A stretch of 64,000 bases of DNA from Candidatus Omnitrophota bacterium (GCA_026387175.1 JAPLME010000011.1:129856-193855), one strand, 5' to 3'; shown: positions 24,157-63,893, counted from the stretch's first letter. Program-made: numbers and translations. The notes: generated by a model not told the origin, from the sequence alone.

Positions 24157-24185
24157 TTGACAATAGCCCGCCCCTCTGTTATTAT
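24157..24185 (+). promoter_or_regulatory. Sigma70 promoter (TTGACA-17 nt-TATTAT) for the TonB-dependent receptor gene.
   Basis: Near-consensus boxes. The TTG of the -35 box is what the ORF track uses as a start codon. Confidence 0.5.
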
Positions 24186-24192
24186 GCTAATC

Positions 24193-46314: not shown

Positions 46315-46362
46315 GCCCGTCTATCGGATAAATTAAGACGATTTACGATAGACGGGCTTTTT
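46315..46362 (+). terminator. Intrinsic terminator. A 12-bp perfect stem (GCCCGTCTATCG / CGATAGACGGGC) is followed by T5.
   Basis: Read from the sequence. It lies 80 nt after the stop of the fusion gene. Confidence 0.6.
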
Positions 46363-46402: not shown

Positions 46403-46431
46403 TTGACAAAAAGTAAATAATGTGGTATGCT
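46403..46431 (+). promoter_or_regulatory. Sigma70 promoter (TTGACA-17 nt-TGgTATGCT extended -10) for the giant gene.
   Basis: Consensus -35 box, TG extension and 17-nt spacer. Confidence 0.5.
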
Positions 46432-46459
46432 TGTCTTGCAATGAAAAGTGAGACAGGAC

Positions 46460-49400
46460 ATGATAACCACACTGAAGACTAAAGCACCTTTTAAGGCTAT
46501 GGCGCTCGCCATAGCCTTTTCTTTTCTATGGCAGCAGATCTTATGGGCCGGTGATCTGGCAGCCACCACCCTCGAAAACTTGAATCAAGAACAATCCCAA
46601 ACCTTTGCGCCCGACTATCTTCAAAATCAGCAGACGGCCAGCCAGAGCATGATAACCCAGAAGCAGGATGTGGAAGATACCATCAATTCGCAGGCCCAAA
46701 CCGCAAACAATATCTCCGGCAATACAAAAGAATCCTCCGATAACTCTATAGAATTACAGGGCCCGAAATCGGCCTCTTCCGGCCAGGCCGGGGCAACCTC
46801 ATCTTCCACTATAATAGAGGAAGCTGCGAATGCGCCTGAAGGCGACGGCGCGATACTTTCCGTGACTACAGGAGATGGCGATATCGTGCATTATGCGGAT
46901 GGCGCGATAAGTTCCATTGAGAAGAAAGACGGTACGGTATTACGTGATCTCGTAATAGGCGAGAATAACGAGCTTATCGCCGCGAATATAACATATAAGG
47001 ATGATACCAATGAGATCGTCGCAAACGGTAAAGTGGCCAGGCTAACAAAACCCGATGGCACGGTCTTCGAATACAGTGGTGAACTGATCACGAGGGCGAC
47101 CTATCCGGACCCTGACAATCCGGAAGGAAATGTTGTCGACTATTTTTACTCTGTAGATAATGACAATAATATCATTGAAACAAAGCTTAAAGATTCTGAA
47201 AAATCATCTTTTTATGACAAAAACGGCGCGCTTATAAGAGTCGAATTTAATACCGGGAAAGTAATTGAATACGATAGCGATAAAAACGACGATACCGATA
47301 ACGGCATTCTTTCGAAAGTCATTACCGAAGATGGGAAGATATACATTTATGAGAAGAGCGAAGATGCCATTGACGGAGAGACGGTGTACACCGTTAAATT
47401 GAAGGAGATAAGAGACGGCGAAGGGAATACATTCCGGCTTGAAGATAATAATATCACGGAGATAGAGCTCTCAGATGGCACCATATTAAGAAACTTCGAG
47501 CTTGATTCTTCCGGTAACCTGGTCTCCGGAAATATAATATATAAAGATAACCCGACGCTCCGGTCCATTCTGGTCGAGAATAAAAGGGTCAAAGAAGTAA
47601 ATGATGTAAATGGCGTCAGGACCACGTATCGTTACGACCGGATTAATGAGGCAGGGGATATCGTAAACGCTACCATCGAGATAGACGACGGCTCCTCCGC
47701 CGTAGAAACATACACTTACACGAAGGACGAAGAGACGCTCGGCGTCACCATAACAAACGGCGATAGGACATGGAAATATAACTCCGCCTGGGTCCTGGAA
47801 AGTTTCAGCGACAGTGAGGGGGCCATAAAGCATCACTATTCACCCCTTGCCGTTTATGCGGGATCGACCTTCACATTAAGTGACGGCACCATTAAGGAAT
47901 ATAACGATAATAAGAGCCTGATAAAAACAATCCTTACTGACGGCACTGCTTATGAATATTATCAAAGCGGCAAATTTGCCGGGAAGCTTCAGAAGGAGGT
48001 GTCCCCTGACGGCAAAAGCATCATTTACGACTATAAGATAACGCCTGAAGGTGATCTCGTCGTTTACAAAAGAACGTCATATGACAAGAGCTCATCCTAC
48101 AAAAGCTATTATGCTACCGACAACGTAAATTACACTACAAATCCCACGCTTAAAGCGAGTTTTAATTTAGACAGCGACAAGACATATTCTTCCGCCTATG
48201 CGAGCGCGTCCTATTATAACTACAATGATAAATCGGTAAGCCTCTCTTTAAGCTTCTACAATGAAAAACCCTATCTCTATTACTATTCCTATAATTACAA
48301 AACCAAACAATATGTTTACGACTATAAGCAGCTGGATATAACCATAAATAAAGACACGGATTACACCGTAGAATATATATGGACCTCTACGGGTGTTAAT
48401 ATATATCTGTATAAATCCTCCGGAACGAGGCCCGGGACTGCTCTATACACGATAGCCGATAATAAATGGAACCCGGTTTTCTCCTTAAGCGGCAGCAACG
48501 CCCATTTAACACTAGACCCTTCCTCGAGCGGCACATACACAGGAAGCGAAAGCGTCTCCACGGATTATAATAATCCGCTAAAGGGCGGCCCTATGTACGC
48601 CGCTGAATTCACCTTCGACCAGAATGCCGCCTCCAGGTCCTTATATTATAGTGTTTATGGCAACAACAGCGCTTCTTACGATTCTATATACTTTAATTAT
48701 TACAATAATACTCCGAGCTTAAGCGTCTATCACTACGACTACAAGACCTACCAGTACACAAATAAGACTATTCCCGTAAATGTCGCCTTTAATAAGGGCG
48801 CGACCTATGTCATGCAGACAAAGATGGAAGACAATGTTCTAAAACTTTATATCTACGAGAAAGGTACCGCGCCGGGCGATCCCATCTATACTATCGAGAA
48901 CGCCGTCTGGAACCCGCAAGTCTATTCGACGATAAGCGGCGGCCGGATGAATGTCGAGGCGTACGATAACCTGGAAGTGTATAAATATGGCGATGCAGAT
49001 GGGACCTTACTTGAGCGCAATAGCTACGCGGACAAGGCCCTCCTTACCTATATATACGATGACGCGAGAGAGGTGATAGGGAAGAAGCTCGCCCTGGAAG
49101 ACGGCACAAAAAAGATATATGATGCGTATAATAAACTCTTGACCGAGACAAAAGCGAATGGTGAGATCGCGGCATATGAATACGACGCTTCAGGTAACGT
49201 CATATCTATAACTCCCCGCTTTCCGGACGGCACCGGCTACACATATTACGATTCCGGGGCCTTCCAGGGCAAGCTCAAATCCGCGGCCATTCCCGATGGA
49301 AAAGTCGTATACTACGATTATGCCGTAAATGAAAACGGCAATCTCCAGGTATATAAAAGAGTATCATATGACAAATCTAACCTTTATCAGAGCATTTATT

Positions 49401-52400
49401 CTAATAATTACATACCGGCTTCCATAAACCCCGCCATAAAGGCCTCGTTTAAATTGGACAGTTTAAAAACATACTCCTCGATCTACATGAGCGCTTACTA
49501 TTATAACTACAACGATAAGTCTGTGAGCCTTTCATTAAATATCTACGGCCAAAAACCAACCCTATATTATTACTATTATGATTACAAGACCAGGAAGACC
49601 GTAAGTGATAATAAAGAACTGAATATAACTGTAAATAGGAATGTCGTTTATAGCATAGAATTTGCATGGAGCCAGAATGGCATTAATATATACCTGTATG
49701 AAGCGTCCGAAGGCCGACCGTCCGATCCCGTCTATACGATAGCTAATTCGAACTGGAACCCGCGTTTCTCATTAAGCGGCAGTAACGCTAATATTATTTT
49801 TGACCCGACTTCAAGCGGAACTTATACTAACTCGAAGAGTGTATCGACGGATTATAATAATCCGTTAAAGAATAGTCCGATACATACGGCCACATTCACA
49901 TTTGATTCGAATGCCGCTTATAAATCGCTTTACTACGGTGTTTACGGTTACTCATCCTCATCCAGCGATTCGCTATATTTAAATTACTATAATAATACTC
50001 TTACTCTGTGGGCATATCACTATGACTATAAGACCTATAAGTACACCAATACCACTATCCCGTTAAATATCAAAATTAAAGATAATACCGCCTACACCCT
50101 TAAGACCAAGATCGAAAATAATACGCTCAAGTTTTACATATATGAGGCGCTCACTGCGCCGGCGGATCCCGTATATACGATAGAAAACGTGTCGTGGGAT
50201 CCTCAAGTTTACGCCAGTATCTCCGGCGGTGATATGAATGTAGAGGCGTGCGACCATCTGGAGACGTACGAGTACAATACCACCGCCGGCATTATGCTCG
50301 ATCAAGACGCTGAAGCGCGTTTAAGGAATAAGAATATCGTTATCGACGACCCATATAGCGCGATACCAGAGTATGCGCTCCTCTCTGATGCCCCCATGGT
50401 ATTTCCAAACGGAAGAACTGATATCATAAATGCCGTTAATCCGAATATGGATTTTTCAATAAGCCTGCCGGCTGGCGATCCGGACAATAACCCGTATTTC
50501 GATACGATAAAATATGATCAGAATAGAGTCCTGAAAGAGATCCTGAAGCCCAGTGGCGAGAAGATATCATATAGAGACGGGCTGGTAGATAATATTTTAA
50601 GCTCTTCCAGCACGACTTCTTATGGCTATCGTTTAAGCGGTCTTGGTAACGTGGATGAGATAACGGTCGACCGCGACGGCATAAAACGCATTTACGACAA
50701 ATACGGCAATATAAAGAGCTTAAGCCTCGATGACGCGACTAAGATCGTATATGAAAACGGCAAGGTCAAAGAGATCCAGAAAGCCGACGGCACGACGCTA
50801 AAGAATATGACGTTCCGCGACTCCGGAGAGCTTGATAGCGCGCTCGTATCTTATCCGGACGGAAGCCTCGCCCTTTACGATGACGCGAAACTCCTTCAAG
50901 CCATCAGCGCGTCCGGCGATATAACAGATTACAGCGATGGGAAGATCCGCAAAGTTACGCTCGAAGACGGCACCGTATACGACTGGTCTTATAGTGGCGA
51001 TAATATAGTGATCTTAGATAACGCTAAAAGCGAGAAGAGGACATATCTCGAAGGCAAGCTTATCAGTCTCGAGGAATTAGCGGGCTCTAAGCTAATTACA
51101 CGATATTATTATGATGGCACCTCAGGAGATCTTACTAAATCGGAGATATGCCGGAATAATGAAATTCTCTACACATACACTTATACATATGAAGACGGCC
51201 TTACTCTCGTTCGCGATGAGGATGGCAATGTCCAGGCCTACACCAAAGATAAAAAACTATCCTATATAATCGATTCCAAGGGTCGGAAATATTCCTATAC
51301 CTATGTCGGCAAGAACGAAGGTTATGTAGAAGTATATTTCCCATCGGGAAATAAGGCGAAGTATGACTTAAGCGGCAATATCATCGAGATCACAAAATCC
51401 GACGGCACGGTGATAAAAGACATTACCTTTTATAGCGATAATACTCCGCGAAACTTCACCTATATTAAGGACGGCGCTACATACAAGGTGGAAGAGGGGA
51501 AGATAGGGGAGATGCTATCGAAGGATGGCGTAAAGACCGTATATTACGATAACGGTTTTGTGAAATCGTTTGAGACAGAAGCCGGGGATCTGACAGAATA
51601 TCAATATTTCGTGAAAGACAGTAAGGTGTTTAACAGTTCATCCGCGCTTTTGGATGGTGATTTTAACCAGGTCAGTCTTTTTAATTCAAATTCCACCACT
51701 TATCTCACGCTATCTCAGGATTCGCTCCGGTTCGGAACCGGGACCGACGGTGTGAAGCACGTAACCGCCAATGAGACATTGGAAGCCGGCACATACAACT
51801 TTGAATCGCTTATGATTGATGCGGGGAAGACTTTAACGATTGCTTCCGGCGCTATCATAAAGGTGCTGGGTACAATTACCGTGAATGGCGCCATATTCTG
51901 CGGCGGTTCTTTAGATATATACGCCCCCAGTTTCAATGTAGGCGCTTCCGGATCCGTCACAGGCGCAGTAAATATCAAGTGTAATACAATAAATAACGCC
52001 GGTATTATAACCGGTAACGCCTCGATAACAGGAACGCTTAGTAACGGCGCGAATGAATTGGATAGAGACGATAGTTTTAGCGGCTGGGCCCATTACCTTG
52101 ATTATAATCCGGGCTCTGGGGCGCTCTCGCCGCGCATAACATTCCCTTCATGCACCATTAGCTCTGTAAAGTGGCAAGCAGGTGGCGGCGGAAGCGGAGA
52201 TAGCCAGGGATACGGTATTCTCTATCTTTATATAGACGGAGTTAAGACCCAAGTCTCACCGACATACTATTGGGGAAGGTGCCCCGGCAGTTTTAATACA
52301 GGCGTCGCTACGATAAACGGATCCTGGAATAATGTTACCGGCATTGAGTATTATATCGAGACGGATTCAACTATAGGTGTGGCTAGAGCTTATGGATACG

Positions 52401-55400
52401 AGATGCAGGCTTTTATTGGGACCCCTACGATAGAGTATATTAGCGGCAGCCCCGGCACAGTTAATACTACACAGTCCAGGCCCATCGCCAGTATCAAACA
52501 ATCCGATCACCCATCTTCCAGTTCCTTCGAATCCGGCGTTATAGAGCTCAATGCGCTTGACCTTGGCTCTATATCATGGAGCCAGGAACTGCCTGAAGGC
52601 ACAAATATCACATTTCAGACGAGGACAGGGGATACGGCTACGCCTGATTCTACGTGGAGTGAGTGGTCGACTAAACTAACCAGTCCGGCCTCTTCTCAAA
52701 TAACCTCTCCGACAGGCAAATATATCCAATACAGAATTAATCTATCCACTACTAATCCGGCTGTGACGCCGCTTTTGAAGCTCGGAGAGAATAGCCCGAT
52801 AACATTTGGTTACAGCCGTGCTCCATCCGGGTCGAGCGAGCTGCCCGGCATATATTGCGCTACGATGTCTAAAGGCGGCGTCACATCCGATTGTGATAAG
52901 AACAGCCTGGCAAGCCTCATCTTTAACCCCGACTACATGGGCGCTATCACGGACGAGATCCCCGATTATTTATTAAACGGCACTCAGAAAGAGCTGTATT
53001 TGAAGGATTCAGTTATCATATCGGAGCTCACCGCGATCACGAATATAGACGGGACGACCACGGAATATTGCCAGGGACAGATCTCGAAGACCACCAGATC
53101 TGACGGGACCATAATTAAGAGCGTTTCTTTCGATGCCGATAATAACGCGAAGGATTTTACCTATTCTAAAGACGGCAGTACATACATAGTGAAAGACGGG
53201 AAGATCGATACCGTAGTAACCGCCTCAGGCGAGAGCGTAAAGTACTATTCATACGGACTGATCGAGAGCACCGAGGCTGCAGGCTCTAAAAAGGAATACG
53301 AATATGGCATACAGACCACTGAAAATTACACGACAAGATCGATATTCCAGGATGGATCTTTTACCAGCGCATCCATTTTAGGACATGGCTCCACCACCTA
53401 TCTCCAGCTCTCGAAGGATTCACTCCGGTTCGGCACAGGTTCTGACGGCGTGAAGCACGTAACCGCGAATGAGACTCTCGAGGCAGGCACATATAACTTC
53501 GAATCGCTTATTATCGATCCAGGGACGACTTTAATAGTCGGCCCCAACACCATAATAAAAGTGCTGGACACAGTCACCGTAAATGGCGCTGTATTCTGCG
53601 GCGGTTCCTTAGATATATGCACCCCTGTTTTCAATGTCAGCTCTTCCGGGTCCGTTACCGGCAGCGTGAATATTAAATGCGACGCAATAAGCAGCGCCGG
53701 CATTATCACCGGCAATGTCTGCCTGACGGGAGCGGGCGGATCTGGCGCTACCACAGATGATAATTTCGGCACTTGCATAAGCGGCTCTCACGGGGCCGGC
53801 GGCAGCGCTGCTGTGACATTTCCAAGTTGTAACATCTCAAAGGCCAGATACAGGGCTTCGCTTGGCAGCTATGGCCTTCCCGCATATGCCAATGTTTATC
53901 TATGCGTTAACGGATCGTGGACTTGCATAGCAAGTTATGCAGGAGCCGGTGATTCCGGAGAGGTGAACAATACAACCGGTTGGTCCAATGTGACGGGCAT
54001 GATGATGACAGGGCAGTCACTTAACGGCGATTGCGTATGTTCTGTATATAACCTGTATGAAATGCAGGCCATTATCGGCCAATCCACGATAGAGTATACG
54101 AGCGGCAACCCCGGCATAGTCAATACCACACCGTCCAGGCCCACCGTTAACATTAAAGCGTACGATTATCCATCATCAGGTTCCTTCGAATCCGGCGTGA
54201 TAGAGCTTAATGCGCTTGACCTTGGATCTATATCGTGGAACCAGGAACTTCCCGAAGGCACAAATATCGCGTTCCAGACGAGAACGGGGGATACGGCTAT
54301 TCCCGATTCCACTTGGAGCGAATGGTCCGAAAGCCTGACAGATTCTAAAGGATCCGACATATTATCTCCTGGTAAAAAATATTTCCAGTATAAGATAAAT
54401 CTGTCAACTGCCGACCCTTCAGTAACGCCTAAGGTACTTCTCTATAGCACTCATGGCATATCGATCAGCTATATTAAGGTTTCTGACAACCCTCTGGATC
54501 CTTATGTGAAAGTGAAAGAAAATAACACCACCTCTGCATACAATAAATCAGGAGTCTTGATCTGGACCGAAGACGCCGCCGGCGTAAGAACTGATTATGA
54601 TCCGGCGAATTCTGAAGGCACCGTTGACCTCGCGCTCCTTAAGTTCGACTCATCATACACGGATTCTCTCACCCAGGATCTTCCTTCCTCTAAACTCTCA
54701 GACTCGCAGAAAGTGATAACCGTCTATGACCAAGGGAACGACACTCCCGTGGAGGTAATAACCGCAGGTCAATCGATCACTTATTTTGATGAAGGTTTTG
54801 CCACCAAAGTTGTCGATAAGAATGGAGTTACGCAAGTTACCTATACTTATGATGAAGACAAAAATATTATAAAGGTTGAATTTGTCGACGCTCGGCAGAA
54901 GCTCGAAGAGAATTACGAGAAAGCCCTGACTGAGATAGTTACCCAGAAGGATGCGGCGCTTGCCAAGCTCGTAAAGGCGGATGCCGCCGCCCGGGCCGAT
55001 ATACTCGCCAAATCAGCGGATATTCAAAAACAGATAGATAGTGAAAGGTCGCGTTTAATCCAGGAAAAGGCTAAATATGATTCTGGTGTATATGACCTCT
55101 CCGAGTTTGACAGAGCATTCAGGGAAATAGACGATTATGAAACACGTCTTCATCAGCAGACTCAGGACGCCTACACGGATTTAGACAATCAAATCGCCTC
55201 TGCCAAGGCACGAATAGAATTCGACGCCTCGACCGCGATGTGGGACCTTATCGATAACGACTACAACAAGATCCTGGGAGATATAGTCCAAAAGGAATCT
55301 TCACCGTTGATTTATCAATATTACAGAAAGATACTGGGCCGGGATCCTGGTGATGAAGACCTCTTATATTGGGCGAATATCGCGAAGACTGAATTAAGGC

Positions 55401-58400
55401 CGCTTACTGCCTCTGAAATAACCCAGTATTTGAAGGATCTCCCGGAGTATGCGGATCGGGAGGCTAGAAAGCAGAATATAATAACGAGCCTTACAGATTT
55501 CTTCGCCCAGTATCTATCCGCATCCGATGCCGATAAAGAGTCCATACTCTCGTCATTAGGCCTTACCTTGGATGATGTAGCTACGTCATTGCGAGGTGCC
55601 GAAGGCACCGAAGCAATCTCCGGCATTATTTCCTGGCTCTCCGGCCAATCCCTGCACTTTGGGGACAGCGCTTTTGAAACTATTATTGCGATGCTGAAAG
55701 ATAACGGCATAGAAAAGTCCTTCGAAGATATAGGTAAAGATGCGCTTAAGGTCGATATATTGACGGGCGTAATAACTAAAGACACCGAAGGCGATCTTCT
55801 TATATCGATGTATGCCATGCGGAAGGCCGCCGAAGCCAATGGCCTTACCTTGTCTTCCCAGAAGATATCCTATGACGACCTGAAGGACCAGGTTTCGAGA
55901 AATAGCGTTATAGTTCATATCGACGGTAAGCATTATGTGCTAGTGACAAGTATCAATGACGCGGACGGCACCATTACCTATATAGACCTCACCGTCGGAC
56001 ATAATGGCCAGGCGATGACCCTTTCAAGGGCCGAATTCATGGAGAAATGGAGAGGCTATTCTCTGTCGAAGGAGCTCTCCTATAATAAGGATCTGCCCAG
56101 CAATCCCTCCAAAGAGATAAATGTAACTCAGGAGAAGAATATAAGGGGAAGCGGCTGGTGGAGTGACTTCTGGAGAGGCATTGTCAACTTCTTCCAGAGG
56201 ATAATAGCGCCTATAGGCGCAATTCTTCTATTTACACCCCTTGCTTCTGTAGGAGCCATATTAATAGGTATCAATGTTGTAGTGCAAACCATATCTTTTG
56301 TTGTGCATACAGGCACTTTAATGGATGTAGTCTGGTCGGTTGTAAATGCTGTAGGTTCCGCGATATGTTCTACAGTGCTCCCGAACATATTCGATGCGGT
56401 GAGGGGTGCTTTTCAATCGATAGGAAGCGCATTTAGCAGTGCGTTTAGTTCTATAGGACAGGCAATTCCGATCCTTGGCAAAGTTTTTGGTGCGCCGATG
56501 GAAATATTTCAAAGCCTTTCCGGAGCGGCTACCGATATAGCGACAAGAATATGGAGCACCACAGGATTTACTGAAACGGTAAAAGATGTAGTTCTGAGCA
56601 TAGGAACAAGGATCATTGAGCAAGGTGTTAGTCTCGGTGCGAACTATTTATTTAAGAGTATGGGCCTTGACCCGACGTTAGCAAGCATAGGCAGCGCATT
56701 GATTTCCGGAGCCATTGCTGGTTTGGGCAATCCCAATATAGGGATTGTCGGTGGTATTTTACAGTCCGGTGTTATTTCCGGCGTCGACCAACTTGGTACT
56801 GCTTTAAAGCTCGATCCTAACATCACCAGTCTCGCCGGTATGATGGCTGGCTCTATTATAGGAGGTTCCGTATATACCGGAACAGGGGAAATATCATATC
56901 AGGACCTTATAAAAAGTATCTCACCATACATATACAGCGAATGTGCGTATATTGGTGTAACAGATGTGGGTGAACTCCTCGGTATCGATTCGCGAATATC
57001 CTACTTGGCGGGGGTGGGGATACGGTCAAGTATTAATATAGGTTATGGATCAGATGGAATATTCGACTGGAAGGATGCATGGAGTGGAGTGCAGCAGGGG
57101 TTGTTGCAGGGGATTACTTCAATCGGAATAAATTACGCTACGCAGGAGTTGGGGCTGAATCCGCTTTTGGCCAACATAGGCTTCTCGGCTATATCCGGGG
57201 CTATAAATGCGGGCATACAGGCTGCCACAGGCGATAGTAAGGATATATTCCAGAGCCTATTTAAGACCTATACGGATAATGCCTTAACCTTCCTGGGCTA
57301 TGGCGATCCTTCAAATGCGTGGCAGCAGGCAGCGTATATAGCCCAGATACAGGATTTCACAAAGATAGTGACGGAGAAAGGCTTTGTTGAGGCATTGAAT
57401 ACATATGGAGCCAGCTTCTTTAATAGCGTGGCTGTCAATTCAATCGTGCAATCTGGTATGTCCATTGGCCAATACTTTGCCAAGGCTCTTGGCGAGAATC
57501 GATTTTATTCAGAAACCATAAATGGTAAGACGTATAAAACTGTAGAGATACGTGACAAGAATGGCAATCTGATAGGTTCCAGTGGCATGTTCGAAACCAT
57601 AAAACTCCCAAGCGGTGAAGAGGTGAGCGAGTTAGTGGGTAAGCGCGAAACCACAACTGATGGATCATTTCTCGGCATTGGTAACCTCGGAGTTGACGTT
57701 TACGGTAAAGTGGGTTTCACCGACGCAGAGCTCGCGACGACTTATGATGGTATACGAAGGGAGAGTCAGACCATAGATAATGGATTGCAGGTTTATGCGG
57801 ATGTGTGCGATTTACATAGTGGAGACGTCCTGCTTACCATAACGCCAAAGGATGTTGGAGGTTGGAACATATACAGCGAAGATGGGGAGTACGTGGATGC
57901 TAATATAAAAGAATTTTCCATAGGGTATGACATAAGTATTAAAAACAGCGAAACAGTGCGATATCTTTCAACCACTATGAATTGGCTTACGGAAGAGCAG
58001 CGTGATATACTGAAGCGGATAGGATATAGCGATGCTGAGATAGATAAAATTTCTTTGGAAATAGGGTTGGTTATCGATGATTCTGGAAAAACTATGTTAC
58101 AATACAGCATAGGATCTGACATTCAGAAACTAATTAACGTAAGCGGAGCGCTTGGAAATGAATGGCTAAACAGCTTAAAATTGGATGTAAATATTTTCAA
58201 TCATGTAAGCAATGAATTGCTTGATGTGACAAGTTATACAAAAAACACACGGACGCTGATTGACACAGAGAAAGGTATATCTGCCGTTGATATGCTTAAT
58301 TTGGAAGTATTCAAGCCGGAAGAGTACTTGAAATATGCTTTCACGATAGAAGGCTTTTTCCAAAAAATAGGTTACGAAAATTCGGTTTGGGAAATGTCTG

Positions 58401-58987
58401 TTAATGACGCGGCTATTGAGGTGGGTAGCGTTATAAATAGCGGACTCGCAAGATTCGTGTATGTGCCGGGAATTAATACGGCAGTAAATGATTTGAGCAT
58501 GGTGCAAAAAATAAGTGATATGTTAGGCATGGATAGCGTTAACAAAACCGTTGTTATTGCTCATAGCGCCGGGGTTGATGCGGCTGTACGTTCTATGAAA
58601 TATGCAAAAGCCGATAAGTATGTTTTTATATCCCCGAGATCGGAAGCATACGCTATTTATAAAATAGCCACAGAGAATGGAATAGACCTGCGCAATATAA
58701 TGATAATAAATTCAGAAGGTGATATCCCAAATTGGAGCGGTAACCAGAATTATTGGGAGCAGTGTCCCAATGGGTATAAATATACATGGGAAAACGTTTA
58801 TATTAAAAATGACGTGAGTAAAGAAGTAAATCTATATGATTTTAATGCGCGTCATAGCTGGGCCATTAACTATTGGGTTGACGGCGCGACGGCCGATGGA
58901 GATTATTTCAATATCTACAAAGACGGTGTAATGCAAGACGAGCCGTCTACAATGACAAAGGTAATAAAAGAATTTATAAAAAAATAA
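46460..58987 (+). CDS. Giant secreted multidomain protein (about 4175 aa). It has a signal peptide, YD/RHS-like repeats, two internally duplicated module pairs, a DUF4214-like segment, a C39-like domain, a Gly/Ser-rich region and a C-terminal alpha/beta-hydrolase-like domain. A GTG start at 46448 is also possible.
   Basis: Signal peptide 'MITTLKTKAPFKAMALAIAFSFLWQQILWA'. Numerous 'xYxYDxxGN(L/V)' YD repeats (e.g. YEYDASGNVISIT). 'LIYQYYRKILGRDPGDEDLLYW' is DUF4214-like. 'GKHYVLVTS...EFMEKWRGYSL' is C39-like. 'VVIAHSAGVD' is a GxSxG-like nucleophile elbow. Confidence 0.7.
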   Translation: MITTLKTKAPFKAMALAIAFSFLWQQILWAGDLAATTLENLNQEQSQTFAPDYLQNQQTASQSMITQKQDVEDTINSQAQTANNISGNTKESSDNSIELQGPKSASSGQAGATSSSTIIEEAANAPEGDGAILSVTTGDGDIVHYADGAISSIEKKDGTVLRDLVIGENNELIAANITYKDDTNEIVANGKVARLTKPDGTVFEYSGELITRATYPDPDNPEGNVVDYFYSVDNDNNIIETKLKDSEKSSFYDKNGALIRVEFNTGKVIEYDSDKNDDTDNGILSKVITEDGKIYIYEKSEDAIDGETVYTVKLKEIRDGEGNTFRLEDNNITEIELSDGTILRNFELDSSGNLVSGNIIYKDNPTLRSILVENKRVKEVNDVNGVRTTYRYDRINEAGDIVNATIEIDDGSSAVETYTYTKDEETLGVTITNGDRTWKYNSAWVLESFSDSEGAIKHHYSPLAVYAGSTFTLSDGTIKEYNDNKSLIKTILTDGTAYEYYQSGKFAGKLQKEVSPDGKSIIYDYKITPEGDLVVYKRTSYDKSSSYKSYYATDNVNYTTNPTLKASFNLDSDKTYSSAYASASYYNYNDKSVSLSLSFYNEKPYLYYYSYNYKTKQYVYDYKQLDITINKDTDYTVEYIWTSTGVNIYLYKSSGTRPGTALYTIADNKWNPVFSLSGSNAHLTLDPSSSGTYTGSESVSTDYNNPLKGGPMYAAEFTFDQNAASRSLYYSVYGNNSASYDSIYFNYYNNTPSLSVYHYDYKTYQYTNKTIPVNVAFNKGATYVMQTKMEDNVLKLYIYEKGTAPGDPIYTIENAVWNPQVYSTISGGRMNVEAYDNLEVYKYGDADGTLLERNSYADKALLTYIYDDAREVIGKKLALEDGTKKIYDAYNKLLTETKANGEIAAYEYDASGNVISITPRFPDGTGYTYYDSGAFQGKLKSAAIPDGKVVYYDYAVNENGNLQVYKRVSYDKSNLYQSIYSNNYIPASINPAIKASFKLDSLKTYSSIYMSAYYYNYNDKSVSLSLNIYGQKPTLYYYYYDYKTRKTVSDNKELNITVNRNVVYSIEFAWSQNGINIYLYEASEGRPSDPVYTIANSNWNPRFSLSGSNANIIFDPTSSGTYTNSKSVSTDYNNPLKNSPIHTATFTFDSNAAYKSLYYGVYGYSSSSSDSLYLNYYNNTLTLWAYHYDYKTYKYTNTTIPLNIKIKDNTAYTLKTKIENNTLKFYIYEALTAPADPVYTIENVSWDPQVYASISGGDMNVEACDHLETYEYNTTAGIMLDQDAEARLRNKNIVIDDPYSAIPEYALLSDAPMVFPNGRTDIINAVNPNMDFSISLPAGDPDNNPYFDTIKYDQNRVLKEILKPSGEKISYRDGLVDNILSSSSTTSYGYRLSGLGNVDEITVDRDGIKRIYDKYGNIKSLSLDDATKIVYENGKVKEIQKADGTTLKNMTFRDSGELDSALVSYPDGSLALYDDAKLLQAISASGDITDYSDGKIRKVTLEDGTVYDWSYSGDNIVILDNAKSEKRTYLEGKLISLEELAGSKLITRYYYDGTSGDLTKSEICRNNEILYTYTYTYEDGLTLVRDEDGNVQAYTKDKKLSYIIDSKGRKYSYTYVGKNEGYVEVYFPSGNKAKYDLSGNIIEITKSDGTVIKDITFYSDNTPRNFTYIKDGATYKVEEGKIGEMLSKDGVKTVYYDNGFVKSFETEAGDLTEYQYFVKDSKVFNSSSALLDGDFNQVSLFNSNSTTYLTLSQDSLRFGTGTDGVKHVTANETLEAGTYNFESLMIDAGKTLTIASGAIIKVLGTITVNGAIFCGGSLDIYAPSFNVGASGSVTGAVNIKCNTINNAGIITGNASITGTLSNGANELDRDDSFSGWAHYLDYNPGSGALSPRITFPSCTISSVKWQAGGGGSGDSQGYGILYLYIDGVKTQVSPTYYWGRCPGSFNTGVATINGSWNNVTGIEYYIETDSTIGVARAYGYEMQAFIGTPTIEYISGSPGTVNTTQSRPIASIKQSDHPSSSSFESGVIELNALDLGSISWSQELPEGTNITFQTRTGDTATPDSTWSEWSTKLTSPASSQITSPTGKYIQYRINLSTTNPAVTPLLKLGENSPITFGYSRAPSGSSELPGIYCATMSKGGVTSDCDKNSLASLIFNPDYMGAITDEIPDYLLNGTQKELYLKDSVIISELTAITNIDGTTTEYCQGQISKTTRSDGTIIKSVSFDADNNAKDFTYSKDGSTYIVKDGKIDTVVTASGESVKYYSYGLIESTEAAGSKKEYEYGIQTTENYTTRSIFQDGSFTSASILGHGSTTYLQLSKDSLRFGTGSDGVKHVTANETLEAGTYNFESLIIDPGTTLIVGPNTIIKVLDTVTVNGAVFCGGSLDICTPVFNVSSSGSVTGSVNIKCDAISSAGIITGNVCLTGAGGSGATTDDNFGTCISGSHGAGGSAAVTFPSCNISKARYRASLGSYGLPAYANVYLCVNGSWTCIASYAGAGDSGEVNNTTGWSNVTGMMMTGQSLNGDCVCSVYNLYEMQAIIGQSTIEYTSGNPGIVNTTPSRPTVNIKAYDYPSSGSFESGVIELNALDLGSISWNQELPEGTNIAFQTRTGDTAIPDSTWSEWSESLTDSKGSDILSPGKKYFQYKINLSTADPSVTPKVLLYSTHGISISYIKVSDNPLDPYVKVKENNTTSAYNKSGVLIWTEDAAGVRTDYDPANSEGTVDLALLKFDSSYTDSLTQDLPSSKLSDSQKVITVYDQGNDTPVEVITAGQSITYFDEGFATKVVDKNGVTQVTYTYDEDKNIIKVEFVDARQKLEENYEKALTEIVTQKDAALAKLVKADAAARADILAKSADIQKQIDSERSRLIQEKAKYDSGVYDLSEFDRAFREIDDYETRLHQQTQDAYTDLDNQIASAKARIEFDASTAMWDLIDNDYNKILGDIVQKESSPLIYQYYRKILGRDPGDEDLLYWANIAKTELRPLTASEITQYLKDLPEYADREARKQNIITSLTDFFAQYLSASDADKESILSSLGLTLDDVATSLRGAEGTEAISGIISWLSGQSLHFGDSAFETIIAMLKDNGIEKSFEDIGKDALKVDILTGVITKDTEGDLLISMYAMRKAAEANGLTLSSQKISYDDLKDQVSRNSVIVHIDGKHYVLVTSINDADGTITYIDLTVGHNGQAMTLSRAEFMEKWRGYSLSKELSYNKDLPSNPSKEINVTQEKNIRGSGWWSDFWRGIVNFFQRIIAPIGAILLFTPLASVGAILIGINVVVQTISFVVHTGTLMDVVWSVVNAVGSAICSTVLPNIFDAVRGAFQSIGSAFSSAFSSIGQAIPILGKVFGAPMEIFQSLSGAATDIATRIWSTTGFTETVKDVVLSIGTRIIEQGVSLGANYLFKSMGLDPTLASIGSALISGAIAGLGNPNIGIVGGILQSGVISGVDQLGTALKLDPNITSLAGMMAGSIIGGSVYTGTGEISYQDLIKSISPYIYSECAYIGVTDVGELLGIDSRISYLAGVGIRSSINIGYGSDGIFDWKDAWSGVQQGLLQGITSIGINYATQELGLNPLLANIGFSAISGAINAGIQAATGDSKDIFQSLFKTYTDNALTFLGYGDPSNAWQQAAYIAQIQDFTKIVTEKGFVEALNTYGASFFNSVAVNSIVQSGMSIGQYFAKALGENRFYSETINGKTYKTVEIRDKNGNLIGSSGMFETIKLPSGEEVSELVGKRETTTDGSFLGIGNLGVDVYGKVGFTDAELATTYDGIRRESQTIDNGLQVYADVCDLHSGDVLLTITPKDVGGWNIYSEDGEYVDANIKEFSIGYDISIKNSETVRYLSTTMNWLTEEQRDILKRIGYSDAEIDKISLEIGLVIDDSGKTMLQYSIGSDIQKLINVSGALGNEWLNSLKLDVNIFNHVSNELLDVTSYTKNTRTLIDTEKGISAVDMLNLEVFKPEEYLKYAFTIEGFFQKIGYENSVWEMSVNDAAIEVGSVINSGLARFVYVPGINTAVNDLSMVQKISDMLGMDSVNKTVVIAHSAGVDAAVRSMKYAKADKYVFISPRSEAYAIYKIATENGIDLRNIMIINSEGDIPNWSGNQNYWEQCPNGYKYTWENVYIKNDVSKEVNLYDFNARHSWAINYWVDGATADGDYFNIYKDGVMQDEPSTMTKVIKEFIKK
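48025..50280 (+). repeat. Internal tandem duplication within the giant gene. Two ~0.97-kb copies (48025-48990 and 49312-50280), each built of two Tyr/Asn-rich lectin-like sub-repeats.
   Basis: The protein-level repeat is 'YDY..G.L.VYKR.SYDKS..Y.S.Y....Y......P..KASF.LDS.KTYSS.Y.SA.YYNYNDKSVSLSL..Y...P.LYYY.Y.YKT.....' x2. Confidence 0.7.
51625..54470 (+). repeat. Second internal duplication within the giant gene. Two ~1.15-kb copies (about 51625-52800 and 53320-54470) with stretches about 88% identical at the DNA level.
   Basis: For example, 51721-51820 aligns with 53422-53521, and 52527-52670 aligns with 54186-54329. The encoded beta-helix-like module is 'GAIIKVLGTITVNGAIFCGGSLDI'. Confidence 0.75.
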
Positions 58988-58991
58988 TATT

Positions 58992-59789
58992 ATGAAAATA
59001 AAATTAATTGCTTTAACTATAATTTTATGCTTGATATTATCAGTAGGGTATATTTTTCTTTTGCAAAAACATGTTTTATGGTTTTGTGACAGCTTTATGG
59101 CGTTTACGCATGAAAATTATTATCAGGCCATGTACGACGGATGGAAAAATAAAACATCGAGTTTCCTCCTGTCGCAGTTAAACATTTTTAGCGATGAGCC
59201 AAGATTTTCTACGGCAGCAGTCATATTAACCGAACGAAAAGAAAAAAGAGCTATCAAGCCATTAAGAGCTATTTTGAATAGTCAAGCAAGCTCGAATATT
59301 AAGCGCGTGGCTATATTCCGATTAGTGAATTTTGATGATAAAGAATCTATGGATCATTTTATGGGGAAAGCATACGCATACAAACAGATGAATTTGAATT
59401 TTTACGACAAATCCAAGTCCGAAGATATCGATGAATATCGAACCATATTGCAGGCTTTATCTTCAGTTCAATCAGAGAAAGCTTATCTACTCATTTTAGA
59501 GTTAGCAAAAAATGGCAGTCGCTGGGAAAAAGCATGGGTTTTCACCTTATGCCTACATTATTATAAGGCACACTCACTGGAAATAATTCCTATGTATGAA
59601 AAATATTTTTTTGATAATTTAGAGATATCATCAAGTCCAGCGAAAGATAATGTTATTTTAGGACTAACATCATTGGGAGATCCTAAAGCCATCCCCGTGT
59701 TAGAAAATATAGCTGAGAAGAAGCCGGAATACAGACGAGAAGCTAACCGTGCCATAGCATTTATAGAGGCCGCTCAGAACAAAAAATAA
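58992..59789 (+). CDS. Membrane-anchored HEAT/PBS-lyase-like repeat protein. Candidate immunity protein.
   Basis: N-terminal TM segment. 'VILGLTSLGDPKAIPVLENIA' is a HEAT-like repeat. The gene is AT-rich and begins 5 nt after the giant gene's stop. Confidence 0.45.
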   Translation: MKIKLIALTIILCLILSVGYIFLLQKHVLWFCDSFMAFTHENYYQAMYDGWKNKTSSFLLSQLNIFSDEPRFSTAAVILTERKEKRAIKPLRAILNSQASSNIKRVAIFRLVNFDDKESMDHFMGKAYAYKQMNLNFYDKSKSEDIDEYRTILQALSSVQSEKAYLLILELAKNGSRWEKAWVFTLCLHYYKAHSLEIIPMYEKYFFDNLEISSSPAKDNVILGLTSLGDPKAIPVLENIAEKKPEYRREANRAIAFIEAAQNKK

Positions 59790-59802: not shown

Positions 59803-60426
59803 ATGGTGGGAAAAATACTTTTCATTTTTTTTGCGATTTCAATTGTATCTGTTAATTGCAGTAACTGCGCTGATAGCGCCTCCTATGCTGTTCAAGAGCC
59901 AAAAGGCGATACTGTGAACCTGGTTGATTTTATTCCCCAGAAGATAAATTTTCCATTTGAAATCAAGTATCCGGCAAAATGGTATGTTAGGGAAGAGCTT
60001 ACGGGTAATATGCCGGCTCTCATTTTAAGCCAGGAGCCGATTAAAAATGATACAGACAAATATAAAGTTGGCGTGAGTTTATTGTATAACGTAGGTTATT
60101 TTTCCAGCAGAGAGTCTTCCAGCTCAGCTTTGGGACAAACTGCCGATCTTGTGGTAAGAATTAGGGATTGGAAAGAAAGCAAAAAGCAATTTGTTGAAGG
60201 TTTGAAAGAAGCAGGAAATACTATTATTTCCCAATCGGATATAAAAGTTTCTGGGCAGCCTGCCCTGCGAGTTGAGTTTGAATCGAAAGCCGTGAGAGTC
60301 ACTGTCATATATGTGCAGGTAGGTGTGCATCTTTTAATGATGACCTTTGAGTCTCCTCCTCAAGAATATAATCTATATAAAGATATTTTTGAAAAGATGA
60401 TAAACTCGCTATTTTTTACACGATAG
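59803..60426 (+). CDS. Hypothetical secreted/lipoprotein (207 aa).
   Basis: Signal peptide with Cys 'FAISIVSVNCSNC'. AT-rich. A GGAGGGG RBS precedes the start. Confidence 0.45.
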   Translation: MVGKILFIFFAISIVSVNCSNCADSASYAVQEPKGDTVNLVDFIPQKINFPFEIKYPAKWYVREELTGNMPALILSQEPIKNDTDKYKVGVSLLYNVGYFSSRESSSSALGQTADLVVRIRDWKESKKQFVEGLKEAGNTIISQSDIKVSGQPALRVEFESKAVRVTVIYVQVGVHLLMMTFESPPQEYNLYKDIFEKMINSLFFTR

Positions 60427-60876: not shown

Positions 60877-61158
60877 ATGCTTAAAGAGCATGGCAGTTTC
60901 ATATGGGATCCGAGGAAGGAAAGAGTGAATGTTTATAAGCACCGCATAGATTTTATTACCGCAGCCAAGGCATTTGAGGACCCAAAGAGAAAGATATTTA
61001 TCGATTCTAAACATAGCGAACGTGAAGATAGATATTTCTGTATAGGGAAAGTAGGCGATAGAATCATAACCATACGATTTACATATCGAAACGGTAAGAT
61101 CAGGATGATCGGTGCGGGTTACTGGAGAAAGGGGATAAGATATTATGAGAAAACATAA
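60877..61158 (+). CDS. brnT: BrnT-family (DUF497) type II toxin (ribonuclease toxin).
   Basis: 93 aa starting 'FIWDPRKERVNVYKHRIDFITAAKAFEDP'. BrnT-like. Its stop overlaps the start of the downstream antitoxin. Confidence 0.65.
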   Translation: MLKEHGSFIWDPRKERVNVYKHRIDFITAAKAFEDPKRKIFIDSKHSEREDRYFCIGKVGDRIITIRFTYRNGKIRMIGAGYWRKGIRYYEKT

Positions 61159-61375
61159 GACAGATCAGGATATGCCGATAGGCGAGTTAAAGAGAGTAGA
61201 TGATTTCTTGCCGCCGCCTAAAGAATTGGCTGTTCCGGAACAGACCATTATGGTCACTTTGCGGCTAAGCGAGAAGAGCGTTGACTTCTTCAAACAGCAA
61301 GCTAAGAGGTATAACACCAAGTATCAGAAGATGCTGAGGTTCCTGGTGGACAAATATGTGGAACGATATACATAA
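61145..61375 (+). CDS. brnA: BrnA-family antitoxin.
   Basis: 76 aa with '...LPPPKELA...QTIMVTLRLSEKSVDFFKQQAKRYNTKYQKMLRFLVDKY', a BrnA-like RHH/CopG-type protein. Toxin-antitoxin gene order and a 14-nt overlap. Confidence 0.65.
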   Translation: MRKHKTDQDMPIGELKRVDDFLPPPKELAVPEQTIMVTLRLSEKSVDFFKQQAKRYNTKYQKMLRFLVDKYVERYT

Positions 61376-62786: not shown

Positions 62787-63893
62787 ATGAGTAAAAAACA
62801 GGCGGAGAGCGCGTTAAGAGAGAGTGAAAAGAAGTATCGCCGGCTCGTCGAGGGCGTTAACAGCATCATCCTGCGCATGGACACGGAAGGCAGGGTGACC
62901 TTTTTAAATAAGTTCGCGCAAAAATTTTTCGGATATAAGAAGAGCGAGATAATGGGCAAAAGCGTGATCGGGACGATAACGCCTGTTACGGACAGCGCCG
63001 GGCGCGATCTTAAGGCGATGATAAGCGATATCATGCTCAATCCCGCGAAGTACGTCAGCAATGAGAATGAGAACATGCTGCGCGGCGGCCGGCGGGTGTG
63101 GATATCCTGGACTAACAGCGCTGTCCTCGATAAAGATGATCGCCCGACAGAGATACTCTGCGTCGGCAACGATATCAGCGCGATAAAGAAAGCGCAGGAA
63201 CTCTTAAAGGAGATGGACGATAGAAAGTCGGCCTTTGTCGCCAATGTGGCCCACGAGTTCAAAAACCCTCTATGCATCATGAAGGAGTCGCTGACCATTC
63301 TCATTAAAGGCATGGCCGGAGAGGTCGGGCCGAAGCAGAAAGAGATACTCGAGATAACGAGGCGGAATACATTCCGGCTCATCAGGCTGGTGACCGATCT
63401 CCTGGATATCGCGAAGATCGAAGCGGGGAAGATGAAGCTGAATAAAGAGGATGTGGATGTGGGTTCGTTAATAGATGAGATAGCGGTGGACAATAGTGCC
63501 GATATTTCCAAAAAGAAACTTACCCTGAAAAAAGATATCTCGAAAACCGCGGGCCTTATCCGGGCCGATAAAGACAGGCTGACGGAAGTCGTTATCAACC
63601 TTTTGAGCAATGCCGTAAAATATACGCCCTCCGGAGGCAGTATAACCGTTAAGCTTTCAGGGACAGGAAAAGAGATACGGTTCGAGATATCCGATACCGG
63701 GCCGGGCATCGCGAAGAAAGATTTTAATAAATTATTCGATAAATTCGAGCGTATTACCGCGGAAAGGCAGGAAGGTACGGGTCTGGGGCTTTCCATAGCC
63801 AAAGATATCATAAAACTGCACAAAGGAAAGATCTGGGTCCAGAGTGAAGTCGGTAAAGGCAGCAAATTTATTTTCACTCTGCCCAGGAACTGA
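62787..63893 (+). CDS. Cytoplasmic PAS-domain sensor histidine kinase.
   Basis: PAS region (NKFAQKFFGYKKSEIMGKSVIG), H-box 'VAHEFKNPL', N/G boxes 'LLSNAVKYT' and 'GTGLGLSIAKDI'. No TM segments. Confidence 0.8.
   Translation: MSKKQAESALRESEKKYRRLVEGVNSIILRMDTEGRVTFLNKFAQKFFGYKKSEIMGKSVIGTITPVTDSAGRDLKAMISDIMLNPAKYVSNENENMLRGGRRVWISWTNSAVLDKDDRPTEILCVGNDISAIKKAQELLKEMDDRKSAFVANVAHEFKNPLCIMKESLTILIKGMAGEVGPKQKEILEITRRNTFRLIRLVTDLLDIAKIEAGKMKLNKEDVDVGSLIDEIAVDNSADISKKKLTLKKDISKTAGLIRADKDRLTEVVINLLSNAVKYTPSGGSITVKLSGTGKEIRFEISDTGPGIAKKDFNKLFDKFERITAERQEGTGLGLSIAKDIIKLHKGKIWVQSEVGKGSKFIFTLPRN

Follow-up and report, generated by a model that had tools for sequence, protein, structure and literature searches.

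The 64,000-nucleotide (nt) stretch of Candidatus Omnitrophota DNA that we have analyzed (GCA_026387175.1, JAPLME010000011.1:129856-193855; the window in what follows) carries on its plus strand, between positions 46460 and 58987, a gene for a giant protein that is listed in GenBank as MCX5678862.1, 'cysteine peptidase family C39 domain-containing protein', from a Candidatus Omnitrophota metagenome-assembled genome (MAG), on a contig of 206,413 bp. An original prediction, made from the DNA alone, described the product as a secreted YD-repeat protein of RHS/teneurin type and missed its C39-like domain, the hydrophobic and glycine-zipper block that follows and the hydrolase-like C-terminus. These elements carry our main result. 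The protein appears to contain a C39-like domain in which Ser replaces the catalytic Cys, followed by a double-glycine-type site and a probable membrane block, and we suggest that it may be exported, anchored through its C-terminal part and processed by its own peptidase-like domain at the membrane. The features on which this rests are listed below, with positions counted from the first nucleotide of the window.

46460-58987, plus strand: giant open reading frame (ORF), 4175 amino acids (aa), about 460 kDa, MCX5678862.1
46460-46549, plus strand: signal peptide, aa 1-30, motif FK..A..A..FLWQQI.WA/GD (the slash marking its end), read from the sequence
55610-56074, plus strand: C39-like domain, aa 3051-3205, with Gln3063, Ser3070, His3158 and Asp3176 (PF03412)
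56105-56158, plus strand: double-glycine-leader-like site, motif aa 3216-3233, from family frequencies
56180-56404, plus strand: hydrophobic block, aa 3241-3315, two to three predicted membrane-spanning helices, Kyte-Doolittle peaks 1.6-2.2
56405-57319, plus strand: glycine-zipper helices, aa 3316-3620, repeat type LGLDPxLAxIGSAxISGAI
57611-58093, plus strand: Ct1, aa 3718-3878, conserved beta-rich domain, present once per protein in 84 family members
58376-58876, plus strand: Ct2, aa 3973-4139, alpha/beta-hydrolase-like, with H-S4036-A-G, D4088 and H4132

Integrity of the Giant Gene

The ORF runs in a single frame without interruption to its stop at 58987. While the claim of one continuous ORF thus holds, the length originally given for it, 4179 aa, is obtained only from a GTG at 46448; the start at 46460, which the original prediction itself used and which is the ATG called by both GenBank and Logan, gives 4175 aa. 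Since the ORF contains two internal duplications and derives from a metagenome, we considered the possibility that several genes had been joined through misassembled repeats. The DNA copies within the ORF are, however, only 77-81% identical over 270-300 nt, so that such a fusion is unlikely, the identical ORF is present in a second, independent assembly (the Logan assembly of SRR20698638), and the same succession of parts is seen in ten closed ORFs of 1414-4053 aa from other genomes, one of them a single-cell genome. An assembly artefact is therefore exceedingly improbable; the giant ORF is a genuine gene.

Serine in the Nucleophile Column of a C39-like Domain

When the whole protein is scanned, Pfam returns two families only, RHS_repeat (41.8 bits) and Peptidase_C39 (27.6 bits), and NCBIfam returns YD_repeat_2x only. 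Against a cut-off of 22 bits the C39 profile, PF03412, reaches 32.4 bits with the segment, as compared with the 27.6 bits of the whole protein, and the match covers profile positions 46-127 only, the half that includes the catalytic His. In a profile search of the Protein Data Bank (PDB) the C39 domains 7n87 and 6mpz align over this His region, and weak matches are seen to 8ssk_A and 8ssm_B, which are StbD-CT/Tox-PL-C39 chains; PDB sequence searches with the C39 region and with the C-terminus gave no useful match. An AlphaFold2 (AF2) model of the C-terminal 1126 aa, with a predicted local distance difference test (pLDDT) value of 41, has as its best Foldseek matches C39 peptidases and C39-like domains (CLDs), including PCAT1 and HlyB, and both 3zua (the HlyB CLD) and 3b79 (a Vibrio C39-like domain) are found with a probability of 1.00.

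In the family alignment the window sequence QSLHFGDS3070AF lies opposite the N[VL]INCA of 14 sister-clade domains, so that Ser3070 occupies the column of the catalytic Cys. This column is filled by Ser in 123 domains, by Cys in 14 and by Thr in one; the His3158 column is invariant (139 of 139) and the Asp3176 column holds Asp in 68 cases and Glu in 65. The catalytic acid and His of C39 peptidases are thus kept in the window protein, whereas the catalytic Cys is absent.

The codons used for this Ser are informative. Ser3070 is encoded by AGC (55667-55669), as is the corresponding residue in all 11 'HFGDSA' loci of its subclade, while the 10 'HFG[QH]SA' loci of the other subclade without exception use TCN, and a locus of the sister form, L022, has TGC (Cys). 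To pass from AGY to TCN takes two substitutions, whereas TGC can be reached from either in one. Because Ser has been held across a change of codon class, the nucleophile position would seem to have been kept occupied under selection, which, by reasoning in the sense of Brenner's 'two serines' argument, argues for catalysis and not for a dead domain.

The sister architecture with canonical Cys (N[VL]INCA) was noted at loci L015, L018, L020 and L022 and in proteins P0043, P0065, P0082, P0094, P0099, P0118, P0127, P0131 and P0149; here the C39 domain lies ~420-650 aa from the N-terminus and is followed by 760-1700 aa or more. Pfam finds neither ABC_membrane nor ABC_tran in the giant protein, so that an N-terminal fusion to an ATP-binding-cassette (ABC) exporter is absent. 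An origin of the whole tail from a peptidase-containing ABC transporter (PCAT), with C39, transmembrane and nucleotide-binding domains, was also considered and was set aside since no ABC transporter domain was detected.

A Double-Glycine-Type Site and a Conserved Tail

About 25-30 residues past the C39-like domain the window protein has the segment K3218-x-I3220(-12)-N-V-T-Q3224(-8)-E-K-N-I3228(-4)-R3229-G3230(-2)-S3231(-1)/G-W-W, where the slash marks the presumed cut. Frequencies in the family at the defining positions are as follows.

Position -12: L/I, 94%
Position -11: S/T/N, 86%
Position -8: E/Q, 75%
Position -4: I/V, 98%
Position -3: R/K, 93%
Position -2: G, 99%
Position -1: A/S, 99%

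The rule that results, L(-12)..E(-8)..I(-4)-R-G-[A/S], matches the consensus of double-glycine leaders (PMC6363468) except at -7. The motif accompanies each of the 118 ungapped Ser-type domains and eight of the nine ungapped Cys-type domains.

Ten residues past the site begins the conserved 75-residue hydrophobic block, in which the family-mean hydropathy rises to 2.0 and Lys and Arg are almost lacking. The glycine-zipper region behind it shows homology across 97 of 98 tails of the family and is predicted, by a poor AF2 model, to be all-helical. Over aa 3241-3620 as a whole, 127 of the 380 residues are Gly, Ala or Ser, as compared with 14 Lys plus Arg and 24 Asp plus Glu. The distance from the C39-like motif to the C-terminus is nearly constant in the family, with a median of 1059 aa (interquartile range 1019-1110), and 76 of 98 C-terminal tips fall into one similarity cluster, again with near-constant tail length. 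The idea that the protein is a polymorphic toxin was rejected on the strength of this clustering and of the conserved ~1050-aa tail.

Within the tail Ct1 is modeled by AF2 with pLDDT of about 60-68. For Ct2 of the window protein, modeled at pLDDT below 40, no family match was obtained in Pfam or the PDB; among 18 homologues the Ser and Asp are conserved in 100% and the His in 67%, in the order Ser-Asp-His, and the tip of one relative, P0020, matches Abhydrolase_8 (24.9 bits), DUF676 (21.7) and Tle3 (21.0, below cut-off). We regard Ct2 as a putative hydrolase-like domain. With lipases and esterases such as DUF676 proteins and the Tle effectors of type VI secretion systems it shares the H-S-x-G nucleophile elbow and the Ser-Asp-His order within the last 200 aa; it differs in that the Abhydrolase_8 and DUF676 matches come from the tip of a relative, the window domain itself having none in Pfam or the PDB.

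Signal Peptide and Family

At the other end of the protein the N-terminus, MITTLKTKAPFKAMALAIAFSFLWQQILWA/GD, has the appearance of a Sec signal, and the family motif FK.IS...A..FL[WF]QQ[IV].WA/GD[LV], together with a hydrophobic N-terminus, is kept in 51 of 73 full-length relatives, bearing out the earlier call of a signal peptide. The giant protein is thus presumably exported, with an adhesin-like N-terminal region of tandem LamG/galectin-type domains and YD hairpin runs. The signal-peptide sequence is unusually well kept (window 46460-46549; N-termini P0019-P0162) and may be a dedicated sorting signal instead of a generic Sec leader.

An exhaustive profile search with the C39-like region yields 690, 351 and 153 cluster representatives at E-values of at most 1e-3, 1e-10 and 1e-30, respectively, nearly all of them 2000-7000 aa in length; word-based searches returned 11, 8 and 2 relatives, mostly fragments from Omnitrophota MAGs. 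Among species-representative genomes the profile finds 25 loci, of which 18 are named Omnitrophota or Omnitrophica, with Ca. Makaraimicrobium belonging to the same phylum. By these searches the family is large, uncharacterized and almost confined to Omnitrophota. The Omnitrophota origin that had been proposed for the window is confirmed both by this distribution (19 of 25 related loci in the phylum) and by the window proteins themselves, which GenBank lists under a Candidatus Omnitrophota MAG. Two family members on very short contigs carry other labels, L003 (Parabacteroides sp., 2.6 kb) and P0011 (Candidatus Azambacteria, 2.4 kb); these are probably binning errors and not a sign of spread beyond the phylum.

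Between relatives the N-terminal modules, which make up about 2700 aa in the window protein, vary in the manner of a mosaic while a cassette that begins with the last YD run and reaches as far as the glycine zipper is kept. The cassette is widely shared, and its start is found at 16-18 of the 25 related loci. At locus L005 (11815-13040) the giant ORF stops 605 aa past the C39 motif and the C-terminal domain is a separate 393-aa ORF, 41 nt downstream, which may be the result of either a frameshift or a natural split. A search for a second family member within the window found none.

Proposed Processing at the Membrane and Its Alternatives

The reading that we prefer, with a probability of roughly 0.45, is of an exported, C-terminally anchored giant binding protein with self-processing at the membrane, where cleavage is inferred from the sequence. 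The signal peptide would direct export of the N-terminal 3230 residues, and the 75-residue hydrophobic block would then stop transfer and serve as an anchor in the inner membrane of the producer. Because the C39-like domain lies 3050 aa into a protein with a signal peptide it is presumably located outside the cytoplasm, where it could bind the amphipathic I3220/I3228 segment, much as PCAT peptidases bind their leaders, and use Ser3070, His3158 and Asp3176 to cut in cis after G3230-S3231, ~10 residues outside the membrane. The predicted products are a ~355-kDa binding ectodomain, which once freed might be shed or held non-covalently, and a 944-aa membrane-embedded tail. With Ser as its nucleophile, such a protease would stay active in an oxidizing extracytoplasmic space. 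Among the long proteins of Omnitrophota, a signal peptide is commonly combined with transmembrane helices, according to a survey of proteins of at least 10,000 aa.

A number of points weigh against this picture. The cleavage itself is a deduction; with the C39 Cys replaced by Ser the domain could be an inactive binding module, by analogy with HlyB, and position -7 of the site is mostly Ala, Thr or Glu, not Leu. The 380 aa past the site are almost without Lys and Arg, a composition that one would not expect of an ordinary polytopic anchor in the inner membrane, and an anchor would have no obvious need for an extra ~850 aa with a hydrolase-like end. The presence of a TonB-dependent receptor gene in the window makes an outer membrane likely, and this would be a barrier for a 3200-aa ectodomain. 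Finally, topology was judged by hydropathy only, and AF2 models the tail poorly (pLDDT 41).

A rival reading is that of a delivered effector, in which the C39-like domain acts as a 'releasing peptidase' that frees the C-terminal 944 aa once the ectodomain has bound prey or host, with the glycine-zipper helices inserting into the target membrane and bringing with them an esterase or lipase to attack it, and the linked downstream gene protecting the producer. Omnitrophota are described as predatory or episymbiotic (West-Roberts et al.), and polymorphic toxins are known to contain releasing peptidases and domains of C39 type. In addition, the Ser-Asp-His hydrolase-like end is conserved, with the DUF676, Abhydrolase_8 and Tle3 (below cut-off) matches in a relative, the Lys/Arg-poor, Gly/Ala/Ser-rich helices are closer to membrane-active toxins than to a normal anchor, and at 10 of 15 loci the giant gene is followed, at -7 to +41 nt, by a diverse gene for a 97-308-aa protein with a signal or transmembrane segment. 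It is the Lys/Arg-poor zipper, the hydrolase-like end and the linked exported neighbor that keep this explanation alive. The tail, however, keeps both its length and its sequence across the family (76 of 98 tips, 97 of 98 zippers), unlike the swapped ends of contact-dependent inhibition and Rhs systems, Pfam and NCBIfam give no known delivery-system marker, the downstream genes of relatives are not homologous to that of the window, and a 75-residue hydrophobic block behind a Sec signal should lodge first in the membrane of the producer. Because the tail is conserved and non-polymorphic and the long hydrophobic block lies behind a Sec signal we favor the anchor and consider delivery of the tail unlikely, if worth keeping in mind. 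Thus of the two roles originally suggested, surface adhesin or contact-dependent effector, the first agrees with an adhesin-like N-terminal region while the second, given a tail that is conserved and not polymorphic, is the weaker.

It is also conceivable that the domain is a latch without catalytic activity, an HlyB-like module that binds the double-glycine-like segment without cutting it and so functions as a clamp or chaperone in export or folding. The canonical Cys is absent from 123 of 138 domains, Foldseek pairs the model with 3zua and 3b79 at a probability of 1.00, and CLDs bind substrate in the absence of proteolysis (PMC6363468). A dead domain, on the other hand, has no need for a nucleophile, and yet Ser has been kept through the switch between AGC and TCN codon classes, the His is conserved in 139 of 139 domains along with the acidic residue, and the G-[A/S] at -2/-1 is kept at 99%. 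An uncut latch strikes us, on this evidence, as rather unlikely.

A broader proposal can be made, although we regard it as speculative and on balance doubtful: that the family is a natural Ser-nucleophile branch of C39 which arose from Cys ancestors, split into AGC and TCN subclades and cuts its own double-glycine-type site outside the cytoplasm, the whole forming a switch for release of a giant ectodomain that binds prey or host, or of a membrane-active lipase module.

Relation to Known Systems

The C39 peptidases of the PCAT/AMS group (ComA, LahT, PCAT1) share with the giant protein the Pfam family, the fold and the catalytic His and acid, and the substrate-like segment has, as do double-glycine leaders, hydrophobic residues at -12 and -4, Glu or Gln at -8 and G-[A/S] at -2/-1. 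The giant protein differs in that its candidate nucleophile is Ser and not Cys, that there is no ABC fusion and that the presumed substrate is in cis, 25-30 residues downstream. CLDs of the HlyB type, which are found on cytoplasmic ABC exporters, lack the catalytic Cys and bind their substrate but leave it uncut (PMC6363468). The C39 fold without catalytic Cys and the structural matches 3zua and 3b79 are what the present domain has in common with them; the difference is that here the Ser nucleophile, the His and the cleavage-type motif are all conserved.

A closer parallel to cleavage in cis is provided by StbD-CT/Tox-PL-C39, the C39 domain of a giant CdiA-like protein, for which experiments have shown auto-processing at a di-glycine of the adjacent linker (bioRxiv 10.64898/2026.05.07.723447). 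In both cases a C39-family domain forms part of a giant secreted protein and would cut the linker beside it at a di-glycine. The C39 domain of StbD is, however, a C-terminal toxin with Cys that is redox-gated, and its site lies upstream, whereas the domain of the window protein is internal and of Ser type, with the site downstream and the membrane block after it. The polymorphic toxins of Zhang et al. 2012 have a releasing peptidase upstream of the C-terminal module, a role for which the C39-like domain of the giant protein, with its cis site, would be a candidate. The giant protein is set apart from them by the absence of known trafficking domains (TPS, PAAR, LXG, WXG and others), none of which was found in Pfam and NCBIfam scans.

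At the level of function, analogies may also be drawn with regulated release of a giant adhesin in LapA/LapG and with juxtamembrane autoproteolysis by the GAIN domain of adhesion G-protein-coupled receptors. The shared elements would be a huge binding ectodomain, a protease step beside a membrane or retention module and possibly a link to signaling, as response regulators, one with a GGDEF domain, adjoin related loci. The protease folds (BTLCP, GAIN) and the secretion routes are unrelated, so that the analogy is purely functional.

Omnitrophota contain very long proteins of obscure role for which surveys list little beyond Pfam content. At the level of Pfam content, these surveys report C39-like domains near transmembrane anchors and a 'PF03412 architecture cluster'; they deal with proteins of at least 10,000 aa or, in West-Roberts et al., with giants of the Archaeovorin/dockerin type of more than 30,000 aa, and with SecA (DEAD domain), dockerin/TSP3 or enzyme content. 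The window protein resembles these giants in phylum, in the layout of signal peptide plus C-terminal transmembrane region and in the C39-like domain; it differs in its size of 4175 aa and in having no SecA, dockerin or TSP3 match. Already known are the gene, in GenBank under its automatic name, and the occurrence of C39 near transmembrane anchors. The passages that term searches of the surveys returned hold no mention of the Ser nucleophile in two codon classes, of the double-glycine-type cis site beside a membrane block, of the constant 1050-aa tail or of the signal motif, and it is these features, all read from sequence comparisons, that appear to be new here.

The C39-like domain and its site form a cassette of ~200 aa that is small, conserved and tractable as an entry point to such proteins. 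Should it prove active, a family of cysteine peptidases would have gained a serine version and giant surface proteins a new route of processing or release, and L..E..I-R-G-[A/S] beside a membrane block would become a sequence rule for the cut position of giants, which West-Roberts et al. name as missing information. Were the proposed switch real, it would be a self-contained one by which ultra-small predatory or episymbiotic bacteria time the release of an ectodomain or lipase module.

YD Repeats and Duplicated N-Terminal Modules

The remainder of the giant protein, N-terminal to the C39-like domain, is composed of the following parts.

aa 31-117, plus strand: Q/S/T-rich linker
46811-48118, plus strand: YD-like hairpin run 1, aa 118-553, PF05593 30.2 bits, best at aa 374-394
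48119-49033, plus strand: module A copy 1, aa 554-858, tandem pair of probable LamG/galectin-like beta-sandwiches, fold inferred from copy 2
49034-49405, plus strand: YD-like run 2, aa 859-982, with the best PF05593 match (37.5 bits, aa 887-918), TIGR01643 21.5 bits
49406-50320, plus strand: module A copy 2, aa 983-1287, tandem LamG/galectin-like domains by AF2 and Foldseek
50321-51586, plus strand: YD-like run 3, aa 1288-1709, PF05593 10.8 bits only
51587-52990, plus strand: module B copy 1, aa 1710-2177, with beta-solenoid-like part, middle domain and terminal beta-sandwich, from self-BLAST and family copies
53285-54712, plus strand: module B copy 2, aa 2276-2751, 49-58% identical to copy 1
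54713-55609, plus strand: start of the cassette, a short YD run (aa 2752-2830) and then a helical, putatively coiled-coil stretch (aa 2831-3050, assigned from composition only) with 'YYRKILGRDP'

The duplications are evident from self-BLAST, with aa 501-857 and 930-1286 being 50-63% identical (module A) and aa 1639-2176 and 2206-2750 being 49-58% identical (module B). No match at the sequence level was found for module A in Pfam or the PDB. In an AF2 model of aa 977-2176, built on an 18-row alignment, copy 2 of this module (aa 977-1266) has pLDDT values of 90-97, and its top Foldseek matches in the PDB are laminin LG4-5, tandem galectins, Gas6 LG and neurexin LNS, all with a probability of 1.00 and E-values of 7e-8 to 1e-5. 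On the basis of these matches the label 'lectin-like' is correct for the modeled fold, with carbohydrate binding putative. For module B the alignment is shallow because a homology search with aa 977-2176 gave two proteins, and pLDDT ranges from 35 to 88, the short regular strands lying at 35-80 and the terminal sandwich being modeled better. A PDB sequence search with module B gave no useful match and the matches to Bactofilin are weak (two relatives only, E = 0.007); the model suggests a beta-helix as a plausible guess. Of the original description of duplicated lectin-like and beta-helix-like modules, then, both duplications and the lectin fold of module A stand, with the beta-helix of module B a suggestion. 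Thirty proteins contain module A, mostly in the form of four sub-domains; for module B the numbers are 23 proteins with the solenoid-like part and 44 with the terminal sandwich. In relatives (P0015, P0025 and others) the solenoid-like part contains Gly-rich inserts, GKGYRGG...GESY.G...GGGGGG, that the window copies do not have.

YD repeats are present, as was claimed; profile matches exceed their cut-offs both for PF05593 RHS_repeat (41.8 bits, cut-off 22) and for TIGR01643 (21.5 bits, cut-off 15.8). The repeats are, however, sparse, occurring as five runs of about 80-440 aa each between the lectin-like and beta-rich modules with only two individually strong stretches (aa 374-394 and 887-918), and no array of RHS size is apparent. 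Two repeat hidden Markov models that we built ourselves find 5-6 YD units as opposed to none in shuffled sequences and did not serve to count the units. Run 3 is modeled as beta-hairpins with pLDDT of 50-77, in a linker region that overall lies at 30-77.

Taken further, the RHS/teneurin-type label of the original prediction would mean a toxin in which a YD shell surrounds a C-terminal toxin that is freed by aspartyl auto-cleavage at the RHS core. In addition to the two profiles, a related fragment carries the annotation 'RHS repeat domain-containing protein' and Foldseek pairs the linker region with YenB/RHS2 (5kis_B) and TcdB-TccC (6l7i_G); these structural matches are weak, with probabilities of 0.6-0.7 and template modeling scores of 0.06-0.09. 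Searches of all 4175 aa with the regular expressions P.{4}DP.GL, DP.G[LIVM] and DP.G found no DPxG, so that the RHS core PxxxxDPxGL is absent, and no NCBIfam model of the RHS core matches. With no core the check for an aspartyl auto-cleavage motif is likewise negative; the processing module is instead the C39-like domain. Together with five short repeat runs that are broken up by other modules, this makes a toxin of RHS type very improbable, contradicted as it already is on the core motif. What the giant protein shares with Rhs, TcC and teneurin proteins are scattered YD-type hairpin repeats, found by PF05593 and TIGR01643; what it lacks are the RHS core, the aspartyl auto-protease motif and a polymorphic C-terminal toxin with a cognate immunity gene, the downstream genes of relatives being diverse and unrelated to that of the window, and a continuous array of shell size is not apparent. 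Judged on its sequence, it is not a toxin of the Rhs, TcC or teneurin type and should not be catalogued as an RHS or teneurin-type toxin.

Genomic Context

Signals and genes that flank the giant gene are as follows.

46315-46362, plus strand: hairpin plus T-run, probable terminator of the GH77 gene upstream, from RNA folding
46403-46431, plus strand: sigma-70-like promoter TTGACA-17-TATGCT with extended -10 TG, 10 of 12 consensus matches
58992-59789, plus strand: downstream gene 1, 265 aa, with N-terminal hydrophobic anchor and HEAT-like repeats (PF13646, 34.1 bits)
59803-60426, plus strand: downstream gene 2, 207 aa, with signal- or lipoprotein-like N-terminus, no family match

The upstream terminator of the original prediction is borne out by the hairpin at 46315-46362, whose folding energy of -24.5 kcal/mol (z = -4.36) was equaled by none of 200 shuffled sequences and which escapes a simple terminator scan because of its long loop. 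The promoter that was claimed agrees with the site at 46403-46431, a consensus match only and one of six tied for best, at 10 of 12, between 45800 and 60600. Farther upstream the neighbors are housekeeping genes, for pyruvate kinase, Thi4 and a 1319-aa GH77 protein.

Downstream gene 1 starts 5 nt past the stop of the giant gene and is a possible accessory or immunity partner. No homologue of this 265-aa gene lies beside the related giant genes, nor do the window and the related loci have any neighbor gene in common. Of the 15 related loci with a complete 3' end, the 10 with a small gene at -7 to +41 nt (97-308 aa, signal or transmembrane N-terminus) include four whose genes belong to one TPR-like family, unrelated to the gene of the window. 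This TPR-like family, of about 160-210 aa with a signal or anchor at the N-terminus, was seen at L001 (10527-11090), L011 (12932-13423), L014 (11309-11788) and L005 (13030-13662 and 15985-16470); it directly follows the giant gene in several relatives and is absent from the window. Homology between the HEAT-like gene of the window and the TPR-like genes of the relatives was considered and rejected, at an hhalign probability of 0.5%.

Genes for histidine kinases and response regulators adjoin the giant gene upstream at six loci (L007, L011, L013, L018, L020 and L023), and the regulator at L018, which has a homologue at L020, contains a GGDEF domain confirmed by Pfam. In the window a PAS histidine kinase is encoded at 62787-63893, 3.8 kb downstream. 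Since such genes are common, their proximity may be due to chance. Past the operon of the giant gene lies a BrnT/BrnA toxin-antitoxin pair (60877-61158 and 61172-61375; Pfam marks, Logan contig). On the other side of the window are genes for a TonB-dependent receptor (24157-26019) and for an ABC exporter without C39 (28184-30004), and a 1518-aa ORF at 19538-24094 with Macro and DNA methylase domains coincides with the lowest GC content (0.40-0.45) of the first 58 kb and may be part of a mobile or defense island.

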